Made by a program: the position numbers and the translations under genes. This document shows, piece by piece, positions 3,357 through 45,990 of a DNA stretch of 64,000 nt (within the stretch, counting starts at the first letter, position 1; every line of letters begins with the position of its first letter). Source of the stretch: an uncultured Lachnospiraceae bacterium (GTDB lineage Bacteria; Bacillota; Clostridia; TANB77; CAG-508); assembly GCA_945917765.1 (NCBI GenBank), contig CAMEHU010000004.1, positions 14,925-78,924 on the forward strand, read 5' to 3'. Under the pieces are notes generated by a model. The model had not been told where the DNA came from. It made no database searches and was given only the letters and a program-made list of their open reading frames with translations.

Positions 3357-3801
3357 GATTTCTTATTTATGATTTTTTATTTATTATTTATTACTTATTT
3401 TTTATTATTTTTTATTTAACTGCAAAGAAAAATAGTTAAATATTCTCATTTAAGAATAGGGGGACTTTATATAAGAACAAAACAGATAGAAGATTACAAA
3501 ATCAAAAAAAAATTTACAACTAATATATTTGGGACTTTTTTATTATTTTTTTATTTCTTTTTTTGCTTTTTTCTATATTTCTATTTTTCTTTGCAAAATT
3601 AAAAACTAAATTAATTATTTATTTATTTTTATCTTTATATATTTTATTAATATTTTTTCTAGGAATATTTTTACAAGAATAAAAATAATTATGAATAAAA
3701 AAATTCTAAAGATCATTTTAACCTCCAAAAAGGATTGATTATTACGCTATAATAATACAACCCTTTATCACAGATGTCAAGAAAAATCGTTCGACATAAT
3801 T

Positions 3802-4326
3802 CTACATAAAACTACATACAAATATTGAAACTATTATTCCAATAAAATCACCTATTAACGCCGCAATTAATATTCCACGAGTATTTTTTATTTTTACACA
3901 ACTTGAATATACTGCAATAGTATATAATGTTGTTTCTGTGGAACCCATTATAACTGATGCAATTCTTCCGATATTTGAATCAACACCATAATTGTTCATA
4001 ATATCAGTCGCAACAGCTATTGCAGAACTTCCAGAGATTGGTCTTAAAATAGCAAGTGGCATTATTTCTTTTGGTATATTTATTGTCTGTATTATTGGTG
4101 ATAGACAATTTATAATTAAGTCAAGCAAGCCAGAATTTCTTAGGGCTCCAACTGCTACGAACAATCCTATAAGTGTTGGAAAAATATTATAAACAATTTC
4201 AATTCCCTCTTTTGCACCATCAATAAAAATGTCAAAAACAGATTTTTTTTCTATATAACTATATGAAATTATTAAAAATATAATTGCAGGCATAGCAATT
4301 ATAGAAATATAATTAATTATTTTCAT
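3802..4326 (-). CDS. spmB: Spore maturation protein B (nucleoside-recognition/Gate-domain membrane protein)
   Basis: 174-aa polytopic membrane protein directly downstream of an spmA-like gene; family resemblance. Confidence 0.7.
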   Translation of the reverse strand: MKIINYISIIAMPAIIFLIISYSYIEKKSVFDIFIDGAKEGIEIVYNIFPTLIGLFVAVGALRNSGLLDLIINCLSPIIQTINIPKEIMPLAILRPISGSSAIAVATDIMNNYGVDSNIGRIASVIMGSTETTLYTIAVYSSCVKIKNTRGILIAALIGDFIGIIVSIFVCSFM

Positions 4327-27679: not shown

Positions 27680-27830
27680 GTCAAAATTAATAATTATGTA
27701 GCGCTTGGAATTATTATATTAAATTCCGTAAGCTTGCTGGTCGACATTGCTAACGCTTGTCTCCCAAACTGCGCGCTTGTACTCCATTTTAATATATAAT
27801 TCCAAGCGCTACATAATTATTAATTTTGAC
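27680..27830. repeat. 151-bp inverted-repeat element (35-bp perfect arms, relatively GC-rich 81-nt centre)
   Basis: Arms 27680-27714 and 27796-27830 are exact reverse complements (gtcaaaattaataattatgtagcgcttggaattat). The pairing extends imperfectly inward. Confidence 0.8.
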
Positions 27831-27878: not shown

Positions 27879-29831
<1,953 letters not shown>

Positions 29832-29844
29832 TTTTTATATATTT

Positions 29845-29876
29845 GAAAGAGTATTTTTTAATACTCTTTTTTTATG
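29845..29876 (+). terminator. Rho-independent terminator directly after gyrB
   Basis: aaagagtat-ttttta-atactcttt followed by T-run. Confidence 0.8.
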
Positions 29877-29976
29877 TATAAAGGAAAAAAGAGGTAATAA
29901 AATTAATAAATAAAAAAACAGCTAATAAAAATTAAAGAAATAATTCAGGAAAAATAGTTATAAAAATAATAAAAAA

Positions 29977-30020
29977 ATAATTCAAGAAAAAATAATTATA
30001 ATTATTTTTTCTTGAATTAT
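29977..30020. terminator. Perfect 20-bp-arm hairpin (second terminator-like structure)
   Basis: ataattcaagaaaaaataat / attattttttcttgaattat separated by the 4-nt loop tata. Confidence 0.5.
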
Positions 30021-30429
30021 TCATAAAGCTAATATTAATCTTCAGCTAAAACTAATAATCATAATTTATAACCTAATATATATTGCTATATAAATAAGCT
30101 AATCACCACGAATATTAATCAGTTGCTTGACTATAAATACACAATTAATAGCTAAATTCATCCAAACGAGGGACTATTATTAACCATTAGGATATATAAG
30201 AATAATCGTAACTCAAGCATATTACCTATAATTTAACCATATAATTTATTAGGTTACACAGCTTACATACAAATAATATACTCTTCATCTCTGCAAAATA
30301 ATAACCTAATTTTATTAAGCTACTATTTCACTTTGACCGAACAATAAAAATCTTTCAACTTTTATTGCTCTTGGTTAAACTAATATTAACCTTATATCAT
30401 TATTATATCTAATTTTTTATAAAATATAC

Positions 30430-30700
30430 AAAAAAATAATAAAAAATAAAAACTAAAAACTAAAAAATAAATAATAAAAAAATAAATAATGAAAAAATAA
30501 ATAATAAAAAAATTAATAATAAAAAAATTAATAATAAAAAAATAAATAATAAAAAAATTAATAATAAAAAATTAATAATAAAAAATAAAAAATAAATAAT
30601 AAAAAAATAAATAATGAAAAAATAAATAATAAAAATAAATAAAAAAAATAAATAATAAAAAAATAATAATAAAATAAATAATTAATACTAAATAAAAAAT
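30430..30700. repeat. A-rich degenerate tandem repeat (about 16-nt unit, AAAAAAATAAATAATA/AAAAAAATTAATAATA)
   Basis: About 16 consecutive near-identical units read directly from the sequence. Confidence 0.8.
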
Positions 30701-30758
30701 ATAATTTTAAAAAATCTAATCGAGAATTATAAATCTAAATTATAATAAAATTATAGAA

Positions 30759-30823
30759 TGTCGAATTTTGTCGAAAAAAGGCGAACGAAAGTTCTTGACA
30801 ATTATAGAAAAATATGCCACAAT
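30759..30823 (+). promoter_or_regulatory. Putative promoter (TTGACA-17-CACAAT) preceded by two direct TGTCGAA (Spo0A-box-like) heptamers
   Basis: TGTCGAA at 30759-30765 and 30769-30775 (10-bp phasing); TTGACA 30795-30800; CACAAT 30818-30823. Confidence 0.4.
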
Positions 30824-30856
30824 ATAGTAAAGAAAAATGAAAATAATGAAAGGTAG

Positions 30857-33244
30857 GTGAAAAAAGTATTTAGAAGCAATAATTCTGTTCAAGAATGGCT
30901 TCCAATTGAAAAGATTTTTGATAACGGAGTGGTAAAGACCAAAAATGATAAATATATAAAAATTATTAAAGTCTTACCAATTAATTATAATTTAAAATCT
31001 AATTTAGAAAAGGAAGCAATTTTAAACTCTTATAAAATTTTTTTAAAAACATGTAATTTTGATTTACAAATTTTAGTTCAAAGCAAAAAAGAAAATTTAT
31101 CCAAACACATCTCTAGTGTTAAAAAATTTGCCCAAAATGATAGTAAAACAATTCAACAAATTTCGGATGAGTATATTAATTATATTAATAACTTAAATAT
31201 TAATAAAAAATCTGCTGTAAAAAATTTTTTTATAATAATAAAAAAAGAAAAAAATAATCTTGAAAAAACTACTTTAAATGACATGGAAAGTATAGTTTTT
31301 GAAGAATTAAATGATGATTTTTTAAGAATTAAAGAAACATTATCAAGATGTGGAAACATTGTTCTTGATATAAACAACAGGGAGCAGTGTAAAGAAATTT
31401 TATTTTCATTTTTCTATCCTAAAAAATCATTAAGTTAAGAGGTGATGTAAATTAACAAAATATTAAATTTTAAAAAAGGAGAATATTCTGAAATAGATTT
31501 TTTGTCACCAGCGTATATTAATTTATCTAATCCTAAATATTTTGAAATGGATGGAATATATTATTCGACATTAATTATTACGGATTATAGTAGAGAAAAT
31601 TTTGATTTATTACTTAAAAGTATAATTGATACAAATATTAATATTAATATATCTTTTTTCTATGAAAAACAAGATAAATATAAAACAATTAAAGATTTAA
31701 CATACCATATTGGAAATGTAGGATCTGATTTAAAAGTATTTAGAGAAAACAGGCAAGATGTTGATATTGCAGCATTTACATATAATGATGCAAAATATAT
31801 TCGAAAAGAAATCCAAGTAAATAACGAAGATTTATATTTTTTATATGTTTATATAAATGTTTTTTCAAATAATAAAAAAGAATTAGAATATGTTCTAAAC
31901 AAAATAGAGGGTATTCTCCAGAGTAAAGGAATGCAAACAAAAAAAGCATATTTTAGACAAGATTTAGGAAATTTAGTGTGTTATCCGATTATGGAAAATC
32001 CGAAAGAAATAAAAGATGTTGCGAGAAGAAATGTATTAACTAGCGGACTTGTCGGAACATATCCATTTATCTCGTCATCAATTTTTGATGAAAATGGTAT
32101 TTTAATTGGTACTAATTTATATAACAATTCTTTGGTTTTCGTAGATAGGTATAGTGAGAAATATAAAAATGCTAACATGTGTATTTTTGGTACAAGTGGT
32201 GCTGGTAAATCGTTCTATACAAAAGCTTTAATTTTAAGGTATAGAATACAAGGAATTCAGCAATATATTATTGACCCCGAAAGAGAATATTTAAAAATGT
32301 GTGAAAAATTAGGAGGTACAATTTTTAAAATTGGGCCTAATTCTGGAACCTATATAAATATTTTTGATATAAGAGAAGATAGCTTAGAAGATACGGAAAA
32401 TGGATATTTAGCAACCAAGATAACTAAATTAATTGGATTTTTTAATCTTATTTTTGGTGAATTAAATGAAGAAGAAAAATCAACTTTAGAAGAAAAAATT
32501 ATAGAAACATATAGTCTGAAAGGAATTACTTTTGATGATAAATCTTTATTAAAATTTGATAATAAAAAAATTAGCATAAAGCCAACATTTAAGGATTCAA
32601 ATGATATGCCAATATTAGAGGATTTATATAATTTATTAAATGATGAAAAAACAAAAAAATTTAAAATTAAATTATTACCATTTGTTAAAGGTTCATTAAA
32701 ATATTTTAATAATTATACAAATATCGAAATTAATAACAAATTAATTTTAGCAGATGTTTATGAATTAGGCGAAGATAATTTAAAATATGCAATTTTTTTA
32801 TTCACGGAATTATTTTGGGATCAAATAAAAAAAGATAGAAGTATTAATAAAGCAATATATTTAGATGAAATTTGGAGATTAATAGGTGTTACATCAAATA
32901 AAGAAGTGGCTTCATTTATTTATAAAATATTTAAAACAATAAGAAAATATGGAGGAAGTGCAGTTGCAATCACTCAAGATATTTCTGATTTATTTAGCTT
33001 AGAAAATGGAATATATGGAAAAAGTATTTTAAATAATTCTAGTATAAAAAATTTCTTTTCTATGGAGGAAGAAAATATAAAAATATTAGAAAAATATTCT
33101 AATATTTCTGAAAAAGAAAAAATAGAAATTAAATCATTAAAAAGAGGAGAATGCTTGATGTTTGCTGGAGACGAACATTTATTAACAAAAGTAGAAGTTT
33201 CTGATTTTGAAAAATCAATTATAAATGGGGGTGAAAATAATTAA
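30857..33244 (+). pseudogene. VirB4/TrsE-like conjugation (T4SS) ATPase interrupted by two in-frame TAA codons
   Basis: ORFs 30857-31438 and 31502-33244 are in the same frame, separated only by TAA 31436-31438, three sense codons and TAA 31448-31450. Together they total about 790 aa, with a VirB4-like N-terminal domain, Walker A FGTSGAGKSF, DPEREY and Walker B IYLDEIW. Confidence 0.7.
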
Positions 33245-34673
33245 AAAATTATTAACTGCCATCGGTAATCCTATATTAAACAATGAATTAAAAAATATTG
33301 AAGAAATAAATGTTGTTAATAATGATATACAATATCAAGAAGGTATTTTTGAAAATTTAGAAAAAGATTCAAATATAGATTTTATTATTTTAAGTCAATT
33401 AATTCCAGGAAATTTAAAATTAAAAGAATTAATTGAAAAAATACAAATAATTAATAAAAAAATAAAAATTATTTTAATATTGGAAAGTTATGATAGTGAA
33501 AACGAGCAAATTCTTATGGAAAAAGGGGTTTATAGAATTATTTATGATAATAAAATAGAAATAAAAGATATTATAAAAATAATAAATGAAGACGAAAAAA
33601 TGGAAAAATATAATGAGGAAATTAGAAGGGAAATTAATGAATTAAAAGAATATATAAAAAATAATAATATTAATAACAAAATAAAAAATAATAAAAAAAT
33701 TATTAATTTAAAAATAAATAATAAAAATAATAAAATCAACAATAAAAAAATATTTATAAAATTAAATAAAAAAATAATAATGATAAAAAATAAATTAATA
33801 AGAAAAATATTAAATAATATTATTATAAATAAATGCAAAAAAAATAAAAATAAATTTTTTAATAATATTTTTAATAACAATAAAAAAAATAATAATATTA
33901 AAATAAATAATAGGTCATATTTAAAAATAATTAATAAAAACAATTTTAAAAATGAGGTATTAATTAATAAAAATAATAGAATTATTTCAATACTTGGAAA
34001 TAATGGCTCAGGAAAAAGTATTGTGTCAATAATGCTTTCAAAAGCATTAAAAAGGAATAATAAAAAAATATTAATTATTGACTTTGATGTTTTAAATAAT
34101 AGTTTACACACATTATTAGGTGTAAAAAAATATTCAGAAAAAATCAAGAATAAATTAAATAATAATTTTAAGGATTTAAAAATCGAAGATTTAATTATAA
34201 AAATTAATAAAAATATTGATCTTGTTTCTAGTATTAATTTGATATTTAAAAATAATAAAAAAATAGAAGAAAATGAATTAAAAAATATTTTTTTAGAATT
34301 CTTAAAAATATATGATTTTATAATTGTTGATACTACATCGGAATGTTTTTTTGAATACACAAAAGAAATAATGAAATTAAGTGATTTATGTTATTTTATT
34401 ACAGAAGCAAATCTATCTGAAATTAGTAAAAGTAAAAGATATTTAGAATTCTATAGTCTATGGAATATTAATAACAAAAAAATAAAAATATTATTTAATA
34501 AATATAATAATAATTGTATAGATTTAAAATTATTAAAAAAATTATATTTAGATTATGAAATTGTTGGATGTCTTAAATACGAAAATATATACAATTTAAT
34601 TATTAATAATAATTTTAAAAATATTTTTATAAATAATAGACTATTAAATAAATATAAAAAAATAAAAATTTAA
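33225..34673 (+). CDS. TadZ/CpaE-like protein: receiver-like N-domain, N/K-rich low-complexity linker, MinD/ParA-type ATPase
   Basis: C-terminal part has deviant Walker A ILGNNGSGKSIVS and LIIDFD. The N-terminal 120 aa has a receiver-like alternating pattern. About 110 aa of N/K/I repeats lie between them. Confidence 0.6.
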   Translation: MGVKIIKKLLTAIGNPILNNELKNIEEINVVNNDIQYQEGIFENLEKDSNIDFIILSQLIPGNLKLKELIEKIQIINKKIKIILILESYDSENEQILMEKGVYRIIYDNKIEIKDIIKIINEDEKMEKYNEEIRREINELKEYIKNNNINNKIKNNKKIINLKINNKNNKINNKKIFIKLNKKIIMIKNKLIRKILNNIIINKCKKNKNKFFNNIFNNNKKNNNIKINNRSYLKIINKNNFKNEVLINKNNRIISILGNNGSGKSIVSIMLSKALKRNNKKILIIDFDVLNNSLHTLLGVKKYSEKIKNKLNNNFKDLKIEDLIIKINKNIDLVSSINLIFKNNKKIEENELKNIFLEFLKIYDFIIVDTTSECFFEYTKEIMKLSDLCYFITEANLSEISKSKRYLEFYSLWNINNKKIKILFNKYNNNCIDLKLLKKLYLDYEIVGCLKYENIYNLIINNNFKNIFINNRLLNKYKKIKI

Positions 34674-34739
34674 CAATAAAATAACAAAAATTATTCATAG
34701 TTTTTAGATAATTTATTTTTAATTATAAAGGAGGACATT

Positions 34740-35462
34740 ATGGAACTTTTAGAAAACATAAATGAATTAGGAAATAAGATCGGAAACGATATTGAATTAA
34801 TTAAAGAACAAGATAATTTTTTGAAATCAAATATTGGAAATGCTATAAATTATGCAGTTGATATTGGATTAAAGGCAATATTGCCAGATTTTGTAGAAAA
34901 TGAAGTAATTGACGTAAAAAATTCTTTAATTACGGGAGGCTTAGAAGAAGGCATAAATTCGGCTTTGGAAAATGCAATTAATTTAGGTAAAAAAGCTTTA
35001 GGGTTGAGTAATACAGCATATCAAACCATAGAACAGGCAGAAAATACCATAAAAAAAGGTGGACTAGCTAGCGGAATTTCCGATGGAATTGATATTGTTT
35101 TAAATAACTTATCAAAGAAAAATATTATATCTGAAAATATTACAACATTAATAAAAAATGGGAAAGATATATTATTAAATAATGTAGATAAAAATATTAA
35201 TAATGAATTTAACAATCAAATAAAAGCATGTGAAAAAATCGAAAAATATATAGAAAATTGGGAAAAATCATATAGAAAAAAAGATGTTGAATCATTAAAT
35301 AAAGAATATAATAAAATAGAAAAACAAATGAAAAAAATATTGCCTTTAGAAAATTTAATAAATAATGTTAATAAAATACGTAATTTAAACAATATGATAA
35401 AAGACAATGAAAATTTTGATTTTAGTAGTGTATATTTGGATTTGGCAAAAAAATTTAATTAA
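34740..35462 (+). CDS. Hypothetical helical protein (240 aa)
   Basis: Clean ORF with AGGAGG RBS. Gly/Asn-rich amphipathic N-half, coiled-coil-like K/E-rich C-half. No family recognised. Confidence 0.55.
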   Translation: MELLENINELGNKIGNDIELIKEQDNFLKSNIGNAINYAVDIGLKAILPDFVENEVIDVKNSLITGGLEEGINSALENAINLGKKALGLSNTAYQTIEQAENTIKKGGLASGISDGIDIVLNNLSKKNIISENITTLIKNGKDILLNNVDKNINNEFNNQIKACEKIEKYIENWEKSYRKKDVESLNKEYNKIEKQMKKILPLENLINNVNKIRNLNNMIKDNENFDFSSVYLDLAKKFN

Positions 35463-35633
35463 TTATCAGTAATTTATTTATTTAAAAAAATAATTATTTC
35501 TTAATAAAATTCACAACAAATTAAATTACAATACAAATAAAAAAAATATAAAAAATAATAAAATAAAAAATAATAATTATAAATAATAAATTATAAATAA
35601 CAAATAGAAAAAAATGAAAAATAATGAAATAGA

Positions 35634-35884
35634 AAAAATACTGCATCTGAAAGTTACTCTATAAAAAATATATTAATAAATAATTGATAATAAAAAACAA
35701 ATAAAAAAGAAAATATTAAAAATATGAAAAATTATTGGTTAATAGTTTGTAATTAAATCTATTTTGAATTAAATTTTTTTGAATTAATTTAGTCTATTAA
35801 AAATCTAATTTCTATCCTGTGTAAATCAATTTTATCAAATGAATTTGTTCTTTTTATAGAGTAACTTTCAGATGCAGTATTTTT
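35634..35884. repeat. Inverted repeat: perfect 34-bp arms separated by 183 bp of AT-rich DNA
   Basis: 35634-35667 (aaaaatactgcatctgaaagttactctataaaaa) is the exact reverse complement of 35851-35884. Confidence 0.85.
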
Positions 35885-35992
35885 ATTAAAAATACCAAAA
35901 AAGTTACGGAAATTTGAGTTTTCTTATTGCATAATTTTTTATGATTTAGTATAATACAAGGAGTGAATTACACTAGAAAAGAGGTAGAAAAT

Positions 35993-38437
35993 ATGGATTC
36001 AAACGATGGAAAGATAATACAAAGAGATATTGAAACAGAGATGAAAACATCATATATCGATTATGCAATGAGTGTTATTGTTTCTCGTGCTTTACCAGAT
36101 GTAAGAGATGGTTTAAAACCTGTTCATAGAAGAATTTTATATGCAATGTATGAAGATGGAATAACATCTGACAAGCCATATAGAAAATGTGCAAATACTG
36201 TTGGATCAGTTTTAGGACGTTATCATCCTCATGGTGATTCTTCTGTTTATGATGCAATGGTAAGAATGGCTCAAGACTTCTCAATGAGATATCCTTTGGT
36301 TGATGGTCATGGTAACTTTGGTTCTATAGATGGAGATGGAGCAGCTGCGATGAGGTATACTGAAGCAAGAATGGCAAAAATCTCAGAATTAATGTTAACA
36401 GATATTGAAAAAAATACTGTTAATTTTATGCCAAACTATGATGAAAGATTACAAGAACCTACAGTTTTACCTTCTAAAATTCCTGCTTTATTAATAAATG
36501 GTTCATCAGGAATTGCTGTTGGTATGGCAACTAATGTACCACCACACAATCTTACAGAAGTTATAAACGGAATAATAAAAATAATAGATGAAGATAATGT
36601 TACAGATGAAGAATTAATGCAAATAATTAAAGGACCAGATTTCCCAACAGGTGGTGTTATTCTTGGGCACGAAGGAATTAAGCAAGCATATACAACAGGT
36701 AGAGGTAAAATTACTGTTAGAGCAGAAGCTGAAATAGAGGAAATGAGTGGAAATAAACAAAGAATTATTGTTACATCACTTCCTTACCAAGTAAATAAGG
36801 CAAAATTAGTAGAGAATATTGCTTCATTAGCTAGGGAAAAAAGAATTGAAGGAATTTCTGATTTAAGAGATGAATCTGACAGAATAGATAAAGTTAGAAT
36901 TGTAATTGAATTAAAAAGAGATGCAAATGCACAAGTTGTTTTAAATCAATTATATAAATTTACACAAATGCAAGATACTTTTGGTGCAATTTTATTAGCA
37001 TTAGTTAATGGTGAACCTAAAATTTTAACTTTAAGGCAATGTTTAGATTATTATATTGATCATAGAAAAGATGTTATTTTACGTAGAACACAATTCGAAT
37101 TAGATAAAGCATTAGCAAGAGCGCATATTTTAGAAGGTTTAAAAATTGCATTAGATAATATTGATGAAGTAATTAATATTATTCGTTCTTCTTATGATGA
37201 TCCAAAAGAAAGATTAATGGAAAGATTTGGATTAACTGATATTCAAGCTCAAGCTATTTTGGACATGAGATTAAAAACTTTATCAGGATTACAAAGAGAA
37301 AAAATCGAAGATGAATACAATGAATTAATGAAATTAATAGCACATTTAAGAGAAATTTTAAATAGTGAAAGATTAGTATTCGATATTATTAAAGAGGAAT
37401 TGACAGAAATTAAACAAAAATATGGTGATGAAAGATTAACAAAAATAGTTGCTGCAGAAGGTGAGTTTAACGTTGATGATCTTATAAAAGATGAGCAAAC
37501 TGTTGTAGCCCTAACACATTTTGGATATATTAAAAGAATGCCAATTGATACATATAAGAGTCAAAGAAGAGGTGGTAAAGGAATTACAGGAATTGCTACT
37601 AGAGAAGAAGATTTTGTTAAACAAATATTTACAGCATCTACACATGATACAATTTTATTCTTTAGCAATAAAGGAAAATTGTATAAATTAAGAGGTTATG
37701 AAATTCCTGAAGCTGGTAGAACCGCAAAGGGAACAGCAATTGTTAATTTATTAAGACTTGACAATGGCGAAAAAATATCTGCTGTTATTCCATTACAAAA
37801 CTTTGCTGAAGGTAAATATTTATTAATGGCTACTAAAAATGGTTTAATTAAGAAAACAGCTTTAAATGAATATAGCTCTAATAAAAAGACAGGTTTACTT
37901 GCTATTACATTAAAAGAAGATGACGAGTTAATAGATGTTAGATTAACTGATGGTGAAGATAATGTTGTTTTAGTAACAAGCAAAGGTATGTGTATTACAT
38001 TTGATGAAAAAGATGTAAGACCTGTTGGAAGATCTGCACAAGGTGTTCTTGGAATAAGATTAGACAAAGACGATTTCGTAATTGGTATGGAATCAATCAT
38101 AGGTGGAAAGAACGCAACACTTTTAGCGATTACAGAACACGGATTTGGAAAAAGAACAGAATTAGAAGAATACAGAGTTCAAAATAGAGGTGGTAAAGGA
38201 GTTATTACATACAAAATTACACCAAAAACAGGTAATATTGTTGGAATTAGAATCGCAAATGGTGATGAAGATGTAATGATGATTACAGACAAGGGAACAA
38301 TAATTAGATTAAATGTTTCTGAAGTTAGTGTTCTTGGTAGATCAACACAAGGTGTTACTCTAATGAGAACAAATGATGGCGGTAAAGTAGTTAGCATTGA
38401 AATTATTGCACCAGAAGTTCAAGCCGAAGATGAATAA
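35993..38437 (+). CDS. gyrA: DNA gyrase subunit A
   Basis: [26 protein letters not shown], catalytic-Tyr region [11 protein letters not shown]-terminal beta-pinwheel repeats. ATG 35993 after AAGAGG RBS. Confidence 0.97.
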
Positions 38438-44697: not shown

Positions 44698-45285
44698 ATG
44701 TTAACTTTTGTACCACATAAAATTAATGAGGACTATAAGAAAGTAGAATTTTATCGCGTTAATAAGGAGTTGTTGAATTGCGAAGAATACAGAGGTTTGT
44801 CGCCTACTGCAATTTTATTATATTCGCTTTTATGTGATAGGCTTTCGCTTTGTTATAGTAATGAATTAAATAATAATGTTTCTAAAAATAAAAATCATTA
44901 CTATGATGAGAATAAAAATATGTATGTAATTTTCACGAGGATGAATTTAGAAGAAAAATTACATGTTGGAAAGACAGCTATCAATTCTGCATTTGAACAG
45001 CTTAAAAAAGCTAACTTAATTCAAGAGAAAAGACAGGGGAGAAATAAGCCTAATAGAATCTATGTTGGAAAGACAAAATCTGAAATTAGTGAAAATTTTG
45101 TAAATTGGAAGTCTGAAAATCGTACTTCCGGAAATCCGATTTTCGGATATCCGGAGGTGCGAAAATCGGATGCAAATAATAATAATATATTTAAATCTAA
45201 GAATAAAGATTGTAAATATTTGGATTATGAAGAACGTGATTATTCTAATTATGATTGGTTGGATTTGTATGCTAATAAAAAATGA
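44698..45285 (+). CDS. RepA_N-family replication initiator-like protein
   Basis: N-terminal pattern ...FYRVNKELL...LSPTAILLYSLLCDRLSL...YVIFTR..., winged-helix ...AINSAFEQLKKANLI...NRIYVGK. Homologous to 57566-58117. Confidence 0.6.
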   Translation: MLTFVPHKINEDYKKVEFYRVNKELLNCEEYRGLSPTAILLYSLLCDRLSLCYSNELNNNVSKNKNHYYDENKNMYVIFTRMNLEEKLHVGKTAINSAFEQLKKANLIQEKRQGRNKPNRIYVGKTKSEISENFVNWKSENRTSGNPIFGYPEVRKSDANNNNIFKSKNKDCKYLDYEERDYSNYDWLDLYANKK

Positions 45286-45304
45286 AATAGAGAGGGTTGG
45301 AATT

Positions 45305-45676
45305 ATGGAAAATATAAGAGAAAGAATAACTTATCGAAGAGAGGGAGATTATTTATTACCAGATTTAACTGTTGATGAAGGTGTAGGAGATAATTATAGA
45401 ATTGGTAAATATGGATATTTAAGGCTTGATTGGTTACAACAAAATAAAAAGGGATTATATACGGAATTAATGCTTGAGGGAAAATTGCCAGAGCATTTAG
45501 TAGAAATTGATAAACAAGCAAACGTAAGAGTAAAACAAATAGTTGAAGAACTTGCAAAGTCAGAAAATGCAGATGAAACTTTAAAACAAAATAATCAGCT
45601 GGAGTGGGTTAGATTGATGAATAATTTTAAGAATCAAGCTGAAGAGATAGTGTTTGATGAGTTAATTTATAATTAA
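45305..45676 (+). CDS. tnpV: TnpV-like protein
   Basis: MENIRERITYRREGDYLLPDLTV...IGKYGYLRLDWLQQNKKGLYTELMLEGKLPEHLVEID matches the TnpV family pattern. The ORF-track N-terminal extension (45170) overlaps the upstream gene and is rejected. Confidence 0.7.
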   Translation: MENIRERITYRREGDYLLPDLTVDEGVGDNYRIGKYGYLRLDWLQQNKKGLYTELMLEGKLPEHLVEIDKQANVRVKQIVEELAKSENADETLKQNNQLEWVRLMNNFKNQAEEIVFDELIYN

Positions 45677-45696
45677 GTATTGGAGGATTGGTTGAG

Positions 45697-45990
45697 ATGA
45701 GTAATTTAAGAAAAGTAAATGATGATATTTTTAGGGAATGGTTTAAATTTAGAGAGGAAACTTGTTTTTGTATTACAGATGATGAAGATAAAAAACATAA
45801 AATTAATCTTGAAGAAATAGGAAATAGGATTTTAAAAAATGTACCTAGTCAAAATCAGAAATATGTTAAAAGTCAGTTGGAATTATTGGATAATAATCTG
45901 TTTGATTATATTTCATACTGGAATGAGAAATATTATAGGAATGGATTTTGCGATTTAGTAAAAATGGTAATGGAAGGTTTAGATAAATAG
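45697..45990 (+). CDS. Hypothetical small protein conserved in both tandem elements
   Basis: 97 aa; clear homologue (nonsense-interrupted) at 58136-58420. Confidence 0.55.
   Translation: MSNLRKVNDDIFREWFKFREETCFCITDDEDKKHKINLEEIGNRILKNVPSQNQKYVKSQLELLDNNLFDYISYWNEKYYRNGFCDLVKMVMEGLDK

Follow-up and report, generated by a model that had tools for sequence, protein, structure and literature searches.

The 64,000-nt stretch of contig CAMEHU010000004.1 analyzed here (the window, in which all coordinates are given) is very AT-rich and carries the replication origin region of an uncultured Lachnospiraceae bacterium, whose own genome assembly (G000) has a GC content of 27.6% and totals 1.82 Mb in 77 contigs. 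Genes follow the order dnaN, recF, gyrB (end at 29831), an interval of 6.1 kb, and gyrA (ATG at 35993), and the locus is origin-proximal, with dnaA and dnaN lying 5–6 kb upstream. The gyrB–gyrA interval, the subject of this work, is composed of three units: a minus-strand RNA gene, an operon whose promoter has TGTCGAA boxes and which encodes a VirB4-type ATPase in two pieces, a TadZ-like protein and an all-helical protein, and a long-range stem followed by the gyrA promoter. Relatives are referred to as members of the own genus, of the own family, or of families f2 to f5 of the same order. The features of the interval are as follows.

29846–29874, plus strand: intrinsic terminator of gyrB, a 10-bp stem AAAGAGTATT/AATACTCTTT (29846–29869) and then a T-run, read directly from the sequence.
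29960–30021, minus strand: predicted terminator of the RNA gene, a perfect ~22-bp hairpin (29976–30021) and a U-run (29975–29960), from the sequence and the alignment of relatives.
30022–30394, minus strand: structured RNA core of ~375 nt, its 5' and 3' ends pairing in a closing helix, with a multi-helix junction and a GNRA loop, from conservation, folding and covariation.
30402–30431, minus strand: predicted promoter of the RNA gene, −35 TTGTAT (30431–30426), 18-nt spacer, −10 TATAAT (30407–30402), from the alignment of relatives.
30421–30701, no strand: A-rich tandem array with periods of 15, 30 and 125, between the two divergent promoters (Tandem Repeats Finder score to 415, the strongest in the window).
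30759–30823, plus strand: predicted operon promoter, TGTCGAA boxes at 30759–30765 and 30769–30775, −35 TTGACA (30795–30800), 17 nt, TG-extended −10 CACAAT (30818–30823), from sequence and conservation.
30857–31438, plus strand: virB4N, 193 aa with an uncertain exact start codon, corresponding to the N-terminal domain of a Gram-positive VirB4 as a separate piece, from NF045971.
31439–31501, plus strand: virB4N/virB4C junction, with TAA, a Shine–Dalgarno (SD) sequence AGAGGTGA, an ATG–TAA mini-frame and a frame open from ATT 31454, up to TTG 31502, from the sequence.
31502–33244, plus strand: virB4C, a VirB4-type ATPase of 580 aa counted from the TTG, Walker A GTSGAGKS, Walker B DE, from Pfam, PDB and NCBIfam.
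33225–34673, plus strand: TadZ/CpaE-like protein with an atypical receiver, an Asn/Lys-rich helical linker (~aa 113–250) and a MinD/ParA ATPase domain, from Pfam, AlphaFold and Foldseek.
34740–35462, plus strand: hel240, a conserved all-helical protein of 240 aa, always the last gene before gyrA, from AlphaFold and orthologues.
35528–35636: further A-rich repeats.
35634–35884, plus strand: long-range stem with perfect 34-bp arms (35634–35667 and 35851–35884) around a variable 183-nt loop, from folding and compensation.
35927–35995, plus strand: predicted gyrA promoter and leader, TTGCAT (35927–35932), 17 nt, TATAAT (35950–35955), ribosome-binding site AGAGGT (35980–35985), ATG 35993, from conservation.

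The sequence-only reading of this DNA had described a broken VirB4-like gene within a 6.1-kb insertion splitting a normally contiguous gyrB–gyrA pair. The two VirB4 open reading frames (ORFs) do share one frame, with two TAA codons between them. virB4N matched positions 1–144 of NCBIfam model NF045971 (CD1110 VirB4; E 2e-10) and weakly the TrsD/TraD family NF041427 (E 1.5e-4), while virB4C matched the remainder of NF045971 with 265 bits, below the cut-off of 325. virB4C also matched the Pfam TraG P-loop (5e-23) and AAA_10 families, as well as the VirB4 ATPase domain of PDB 4ag5 (E 4e-46). virB4N orthologues adjoined virB4C in all families. At the junction, 12/12 relatives examined had a stop and a strong SD, behind which ATA or ATT often came next, and orthologous virB4C frames were ~600 aa long everywhere in a search of 40 relatives. 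These two observations indicated that the split is a conserved gene structure, the form taken in all relatives, and not a lesion. For the same reasons a change of genetic code, by which the two TAA codons would be read through, was needless. The virB4C frame seemingly starts at ATT or ATA behind the strong SD. In three relatives (G004:C7, G017:C22 and G209:C10), the virB4C orthologue was found in two or three overlapping pieces; the split in the window is of another kind.

The two other proteins turned out as the sequence-only reading had supposed, a TadZ/CpaE-like protein and a helical protein of 240 aa. The TadZ-like protein matched AAA_31, CbiA and ParA in Pfam, and its AlphaFold model (predicted local distance difference test score, pLDDT, 82) shows a (beta-alpha)5 receiver-like N-domain devoid of the acceptor Asp and a ParA fold. 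With Foldseek, the ATPase domain reached E ~1e-10 to ParA, MinD, FleN and FlhG, and the sole two-domain match in the PDB was 3fkq, the TadZ of Eubacterium rectale (E 1.4e-7). TadZ was 459–485 aa long in the window species and its closest kin as against 350–430 aa in other relatives, hence its linker was expanded in the former; this linker is itself encoded by an array of the type seen in the A-rich repeats of the spacer. The AlphaFold model of hel240 is an all-helical bundle (pLDDT 89, predicted template-modeling score 0.82). This protein had 78 orthologues in the retrieved loci and at least 288 database relatives, all unnamed and all without Pfam assignment. It belonged to no family in Pfam, NCBIfam or PHROGs and had no structural neighbor in the PDB or BFVD (best E 0.25, TM score ~0.2).

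How old is this arrangement? Among the 40 relatives searched with the larger VirB4 piece, most species of the genus had an orthologue at 70–85% identity, three sister families had one at 45–51%, and a fourth at 32–35%. We retrieved 20 kb around 20 of the VirB4 matches and mapped the window proteins onto these loci. The order dnaN-recF-gyrB-virB4N-virB4C-tadZ-hel-gyrA-dnaI-like was found in 9/9 genus loci with full flanks, and window-type gene order was also found in two other genera of the own family. The VirB4 module lies between gyrB and gyrA in f4, too, and directly upstream of gyrA in f5. Genus members seemingly devoid of the operon proved to be cases of assembly breaks (G005, G008, G012 and G024): the helical gene, plus tadZ in G008, still sits ahead of gyrA at the contig end in G005 and G008, and gyrA itself is absent from the assembly in G012 and G024. 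No contiguous gyrB–gyrA pair was seen among relatives with enough flanking sequence; every one of them has the same genes in the same place, so that for this lineage the idea of an insertion is wrong. Of 208 stretches that fitted the patterns used to scan one genome per species, 135 proved to encode relatives. The best 80 of these 135 were all metagenome-assembled genomes (MAGs) of uncultured gut Clostridia (Clostridium sp. CAG:571, CAG:245, Candidatus Merdicola, Candidatus Scatovivens), lineages which we take to belong to the GTDB order TANB77. In a survey of 399 genomes from the class, three families of the order had a VirB4 orthologue in every genome sampled. Outside the order, the best VirB4 matches were 35–37% identical, sporadic and without linked Tad-like genes, a distribution that has the pattern of a mobile-element VirB4. 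The interval is, accordingly, no recent insertion but an ancient locus near the origin, passed on vertically within an order of uncultured gut Clostridia (TANB77-like). The intervening genes are thus shared, intact, by the relatives; no housekeeping role is known for them. "Pseudogene" and "intergenic" as annotation labels at this locus would be wrong.

Sister families provided a view of a longer module. In f3, f4 and f5 the operon comprised virB4N, virB4C, tadZ, an ATPase of 410–440 aa (T2SSE 8e-26; 147 bits with the VirB11 model and 118 bits with the TadA-type model), a membrane protein of ~310 aa (T2SSF 8e-8) and, last, the helical protein, at full length or in shorter versions. No T2SSE ATPase passed the cut-off anywhere in G000, which indicates that the window lineage lost the VirB11/TadA-like and TadB-like genes. 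By this comparison the window operon is a reduced version of a module of six genes, all of which sister families retain. Shortening went further in the own family, as the helical gene directly follows virB4C in eight loci (L046, L052, L057, L065, L087, L098, L099 and L101) and lies ~80 nt after it in L127; tadZ was therefore also lost in some members. In f2, only a small hydrophobic ORF (no Pfam match), which precedes virB4N, and the split VirB4 were present, among housekeeping genes. Across these loci the persistent core is the split VirB4, accompanied in most lineages by the helical protein. Downstream of the six-gene VirB4/Tad module of one f3 locus lie genes for a DUF308 membrane protein and for YabG, a sporulation protease (L125 3125–3997).

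Conjugation partners were searched for as well. Neither relaxase nor coupling protein (VirD4/TcpA) was found in the ORFs from gyrB to 8 kb past gyrA or in the sister-family loci examined, and no VirB6-like, VirB8/TcpC-like or peptidoglycan hydrolase gene was found in the interval or linked to the operon in any locus examined. No candidate small ORF for a Flp-type pilin or a prepilin peptidase was present in the interval or in sister-family modules, no genome-wide search having been made, and the four proteins of the interval contain no hydrophobic segments. Pfam revealed no integrase or transposase domain in the interval, in agreement with the sequence-only reading. There were no extra genes of a type IV secretion system (T4SS) around gyrA, downstream of which lie dnaI-like, dnaB/D-like, HtrA and oxidoreductase genes. 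Some 6 kb downstream of gyrA, RepA_N and TnpV genes located after a tRNA-Arg/tRNA-Pro pair (44698–45990) mark the start of a mobile element.

The above might be taken for the decaying relic of an integrated conjugative element, whose leftovers are without function; a relic of a conjugative or secretion module was one of the two possibilities raised by the sequence-only reading. Indeed a single T4SS signature gene is left, relaxase, coupling protein, VirB6/VirB8-like protein and hydrolase all being absent, lineages differ by stepwise gene loss, and virB4C is in pieces in G004, G017 and G209. Yet virB4C frames were intact in more than 100 species spanning 32–85% identity, and in 108 distinct orthologues of 32–84% identity the Walker A GxSGxGK, the Walker B DE and a TQD motif were invariant. 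Moreover, the position is fixed across the order, the promoter is conserved across three families, and persistence for so long is not expected in genomes of 1.2–1.8 Mb. We also computed the ratio of nonsynonymous to synonymous substitution rates (dN/dS) against four to six close relatives, with dS near saturation. Values were 0.11–0.19 for virB4C, 0.16–0.37 for virB4N, 0.28–0.66 for tadZ and 0.25–0.65 for hel240; in the same comparison recF gave 0.16–0.27 and gyrA and gyrB 0.04–0.11. Because of the near-saturation of dS, intact frames across the order are a stronger argument than dN/dS. Intact ORFs and purifying selection make the relic extremely improbable. The other possibility raised by the sequence-only reading, a domesticated ATPase pair at an origin-proximal locus, fits the data.

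The operon promoter carries two perfect TGTCGAA boxes 10 bp apart, 20 bp upstream of TTGACA. In 10/10 species of the genus, TTGAC and one or both boxes were found at the same distance upstream of virB4N, and the complete arrangement TGTCGAA-N3-TGTCGAA-CGATTTTT-TTGAC was found again in f4 and f5. TGTCGAA is the established Spo0A box. G000 carries spo0A, spoIVA and spoIIGA, and therefore has sporulation genes. It encodes five proteins with the C-terminal DNA-binding domain of Spo0A (on contigs C28, C20, C6, with two, and C7), one being the true Spo0A (159 bits, on C28) and the four others paralogues. Two Spo0A_C paralogues lie on C6 near a VirB4 of the type found in integrative and conjugative elements (ICEs). 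The module TGTCGAA-N3-TGTCGAA-CGATTTTTC-TTGAC-N17-TATAAT occurs at ~24 tandem sites in G000, with less than one expected by chance according to our estimate; single boxes were not enriched (137 versus 164 expected). One such module is present in the window near 3790–3806, on the minus strand. Membership of the operon in a Spo0A regulon was examined through the upstream regions of spoIIGA, spo0A and spoIVA, and no tandem boxes were found there. A conserved TGTCGAA-binding regulator presumably controls the operon, with Spo0A or one of its four paralogues as candidates.

This raised the possibility of a device of the cell cycle or of sporulation, in which a MinD-like ATPase and a VirB4 pump located by oriC, activated by Spo0A, would act on the chromosome or in transport between forespore and mother cell. 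VirB4 belongs to the FtsK/HerA superfamily in the published classification. Tandem perfect 0A-type boxes just upstream of the −35 and conserved in three families, the sporulation genes of G000, the origin-proximal location and the f3 module adjoining yabG all point in this direction. However, genes unrelated to sporulation also have this promoter module in front of them, spoIIGA lacks it, the four Spo0A_C paralogues could bind the boxes instead, and nothing ties the proteins to DNA. We consider such a device unlikely.

Next to the operon, the ~400 bp described as ORF-free in the sequence-only reading are without ORFs, as claimed, but a structured RNA gene on the minus strand had been overlooked. 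The region 30022–30394 is 90% identical to that of the closest species and 66–75% identical across the family, with neighboring intergenic DNA being unalignable, and the surrounding genes have the opposite GC skew. The minimum free energy on the minus strand was −140 kcal/mol as against −85 ± 5 for shuffled sequences (z = −10.8), while the plus-strand fold had z = −3.6, mainly derived from the hairpin. An alignment of 40 relatives showed conservation of a TTG(A/T)AT-N17/18-TATAAT-like promoter, of the 5' end UAAGGUU and of the 3' end, after which a hairpin of unrelated sequence and a U-run stand at the same place. The second perfect hairpin pointed out behind gyrB by the sequence-only reading, present at ~29976–30021, is accordingly reassigned as the terminator of this RNA. 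RNAalifold gave 107 pairs in ten helices, 78 of them with compensatory double changes. Pairing was possible in 96.7% of cells, versus 84% in shuffles and 36–44% when partners were slid by 1–3 columns, and the covariation score was 0.40 versus 0.06–0.08 in controls. A decayed minus-strand gene was discarded, as all stop-to-stop frames are <40 aa and the conservation pattern is that of paired helices. Known housekeeping RNAs were likewise discarded, since the RNase P, tmRNA, 6S and signal recognition particle (SRP) RNAs are all located elsewhere in G000. With Rfam 15, no match of the RNA region in the window reached the gathering score, and a chance small nucleolar RNA match was the only one at E ≤ 10.

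We searched for the distribution of the RNA with a covariance model of its 3' domain. Within the order, one copy was found in 42/52 genomes of the family and in 8/33 f5 genomes, and there was no match in f2, f3 and f4. In f5, it stands divergently upstream of virB4N in G032 and G493, just upstream and on the same strand in G499, and elsewhere in five others. Beyond the order, full-length matches (49–54 bits) were obtained in three genomes of two other Clostridia families, with two copies each in G059 and G129; in two of these three genomes one copy, at L139 2798–3207 and L142 2759–3162, lies ~800 nt upstream of the SRP RNA gene. None of the five homologues from other families matched Rfam at E ≤ 0.1. 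In the cross-family alignment 84 pairs were kept, 71 of them compensated, as well as the GNRA loop and a further long-range helix. On the strength of this covariation and distribution, the spacer RNA is an independent, uncatalogued structured RNA with its own predicted promoter and terminator and a range wider than that of the VirB4 operon. Like the large structured bacterial RNAs classed in Rfam as OLE, ROOL, GOLLD and raiA, it measures several hundred nucleotides, covaries strongly, is folded around a multi-helix junction, has a GNRA loop as well as a promoter and terminator of its own, and is present once, or rarely twice, per genome; unlike them, it matched no Rfam 15 model at E ≤ 10.

At the other end of the interval, the 34-bp perfect inverted repeat that the sequence-only reading had noticed upstream of gyrA folds as a single long helix (z = −8.2). 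The four closest species have a stem of 32–34 bp at the same place, kept through changes on both arms; mismatches amounted to 8 G:U on the plus strand, including all internal ones, versus 2–3 A:C at helix ends. The 94–181 nt enclosed in these species are not conserved, and in more distant members of the genus the long stem gives way to an ordinary terminator hairpin. As the U-run behind the stem is not conserved, we read the stem as a 3' element of the operon acting at the RNA level, in processing or termination, rather than as a DNA switch. A DNA-level element, be it an invertible switch, a miniature inverted-repeat transposable element (MITE) or an insertion scar, seems very unlikely. Perfect arms around ~180 bp resemble invertible promoters and the edge of the interval would suit such an element, but the arm sequence is unique in G000, which excludes a MITE or repeat family, the position is kept in four species with compensatory changes, every internal mismatch is a plus-strand G:U (a small count), the loop lacks conservation and there is no recombinase nearby. 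An own promoter of gyrA at about 35.9 kb had been suspected; promoter, leader and ribosome-binding site were nearly invariant in five species, with a variable spacer upstream, from which we predict that gyrA does have its own promoter. In the recF–gyrB spacer (27680–27830), another long perfect inverted repeat has arms of ~40 nt and a GC-richer center of ~60 nt, so that unusually long hairpin elements precede both gyrase genes.

The remaining features agreed with their first description. Both A-rich blocks were present, as was the strong gyrB terminator, which a consensus scanner skipped because its stem has fewer than three G-C pairs; at 20% GC, consensus promoter and terminator scanning was uninformative (61 sites versus 70 expected). 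The spacer between gyrB and virB4N ranged from 155 to 1316 bp among genus members. Given this variability, the A-rich arrays are AT-rich expansions specific to their lineages, and the contig breaks of the relatives are probably due to them.

Several known systems share parts with the locus. Patescibacteria possess a chromosomal, relaxase-less T4SS, often origin-proximal and proposed to have been co-opted for a role other than conjugation (Quinonero-Coronel et al. 2025, PMC12102498). The likeness lies in a monoderm (MPF-FATA) VirB4 carried on the chromosome without relaxase by uncultured bacteria with small genomes; the window locus likewise is a chromosomal, relaxase-less, origin-proximal VirB4 locus kept across a lineage. 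It differs in belonging to Clostridia, in having VirB4 split in two and in its association with Tad-type parts, namely TadZ and, in sister families, also VirB11/TadA and TadB, and, unlike in Patescibacteria, the window has neither a VirB2-like pilin nor VirB6 nor any other T4SS gene linked to it. With Gram-positive conjugative VirB4 proteins (CD1110/Tn916-type NF045971; Thermoanaerobacter 4ag5), the two VirB4 pieces share the sequence family, the Walker motifs and the N-terminal domain preceding the ATPase. With the staphylococcal TrsD and TrsE pair (NF041427), they share a separate small N-piece beside the ATPase, TrsD/TraD being a described stand-alone N-piece. Yet both pieces fall below the curated cut-offs of these conjugative families (265 versus 325 bits and 21.7 versus 200), and the window VirB4 is located off mobile elements, without conjugation partners, and inherited vertically across the order. 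As for the Tad (type IVc) pilus, the TadZ architecture of an atypical receiver plus a MinD/ParA ATPase (structure 3fkq) is shared, and sister families also have, arranged in Tad gene order, a T2SSE ATPase and a membrane protein resembling T2SSF. Unlike a Tad pilus, the window set has no pilin, prepilin peptidase or CpaB, VirB4 stands ahead of the set, and G000 has no T2SSE ATPase. A Tad pilus cluster published for TANB77 contains CpaB, TadZ, CpaE, a 640-aa TadA, a fused TadBC and pilins (PMC11680825); identity with it was dismissed, as the gene set is different. Our literature searches found no paper on a VirB4/TadZ/helical operon.

DNA transfer was another possibility, the operon providing a helper motor that plugs into T4SS channels of ICEs in the same genome, or serving ComB/Ced-like DNA uptake or export. 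Four further VirB4 paralogues are encoded on other contigs of G000, the TGTCGAA module also occurs near mobile-type genes, and the closest VirB4 outside the order (35–37% identity) occurs sporadically, as genes of mobile elements do, with its N-piece arranged in the same way. However, the paralogues are just 25–28% identical and come with a full-length VirB4 of their own, the operon is constant while ICE content varies between species, and no DNA-processing gene is linked to it. We regard a role in DNA transfer as decidedly improbable.

The reading that we favor, and hold to be probably correct, is that of an old inherited locus consisting of the RNA gene, a cut-down VirB4 operon, and the stem with the gyrA promoter, the operon encoding a domesticated, relaxase-less motor derived from T4SS and Tad parts. 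This motor would no longer serve conjugation. VirB4N and VirB4C would together form a hexameric ATPase, which the TadZ-like protein may position or gate at the membrane, and the helical protein would be an adaptor or a substrate. Spo0A or one of its four paralogues, as the regulator binding TGTCGAA, would switch the operon on, the stem would end or process the operon transcript, leaving gyrA to be transcribed independently, and the RNA would be a separate gene sharing the site with the operon.

Several points weigh against this proposal. The motor role of all four proteins is deduced from their parts, and the operon of the genus offers no membrane component for a VirB4 motor to act with. TadZ and hel240 evolve fast (dN/dS to 0.66, with dS near saturation). 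Tandem TGTCGAA sites precede a mixture of genes, including HicAB-like and Rpn-like ones, and are missing at spoIIGA, which speaks against taking control by Spo0A for granted. Finally, the stem is not a canonical terminator in all species, owing to the non-conserved U-run.

A bolder version is more tentative, and we see it as possible rather than probable. According to it, the split VirB4 and its helical partner, plus TadZ, VirB11 and TadB where kept, would constitute a new non-conjugative translocation motor, forming part of the core and switched by a regulator in the life cycle, for example for spore formation or cell–cell contact, and the RNA would be a new large functional RNA, such as a ribozyme or the scaffold of a ribonucleoprotein, and not a regulatory leader.

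TANB77-like Clostridia have been linked to the response to cancer immunotherapy (PMC11680825). They are common, uncultured gut bacteria with reduced genomes. In these bacteria, the series of losses from six genes to four, to three, and to a split VirB4 with at most a small upstream ORF (f2) amounts to a natural dissection of the indispensable parts. The RNA represents a large, strongly covarying, uncatalogued family that reaches beyond the order. A secretion-type ATPase operon kept by oriC across an order parallels the essential, co-opted T4SS of Patescibacteria and, as such, points to an unrecognized machine.

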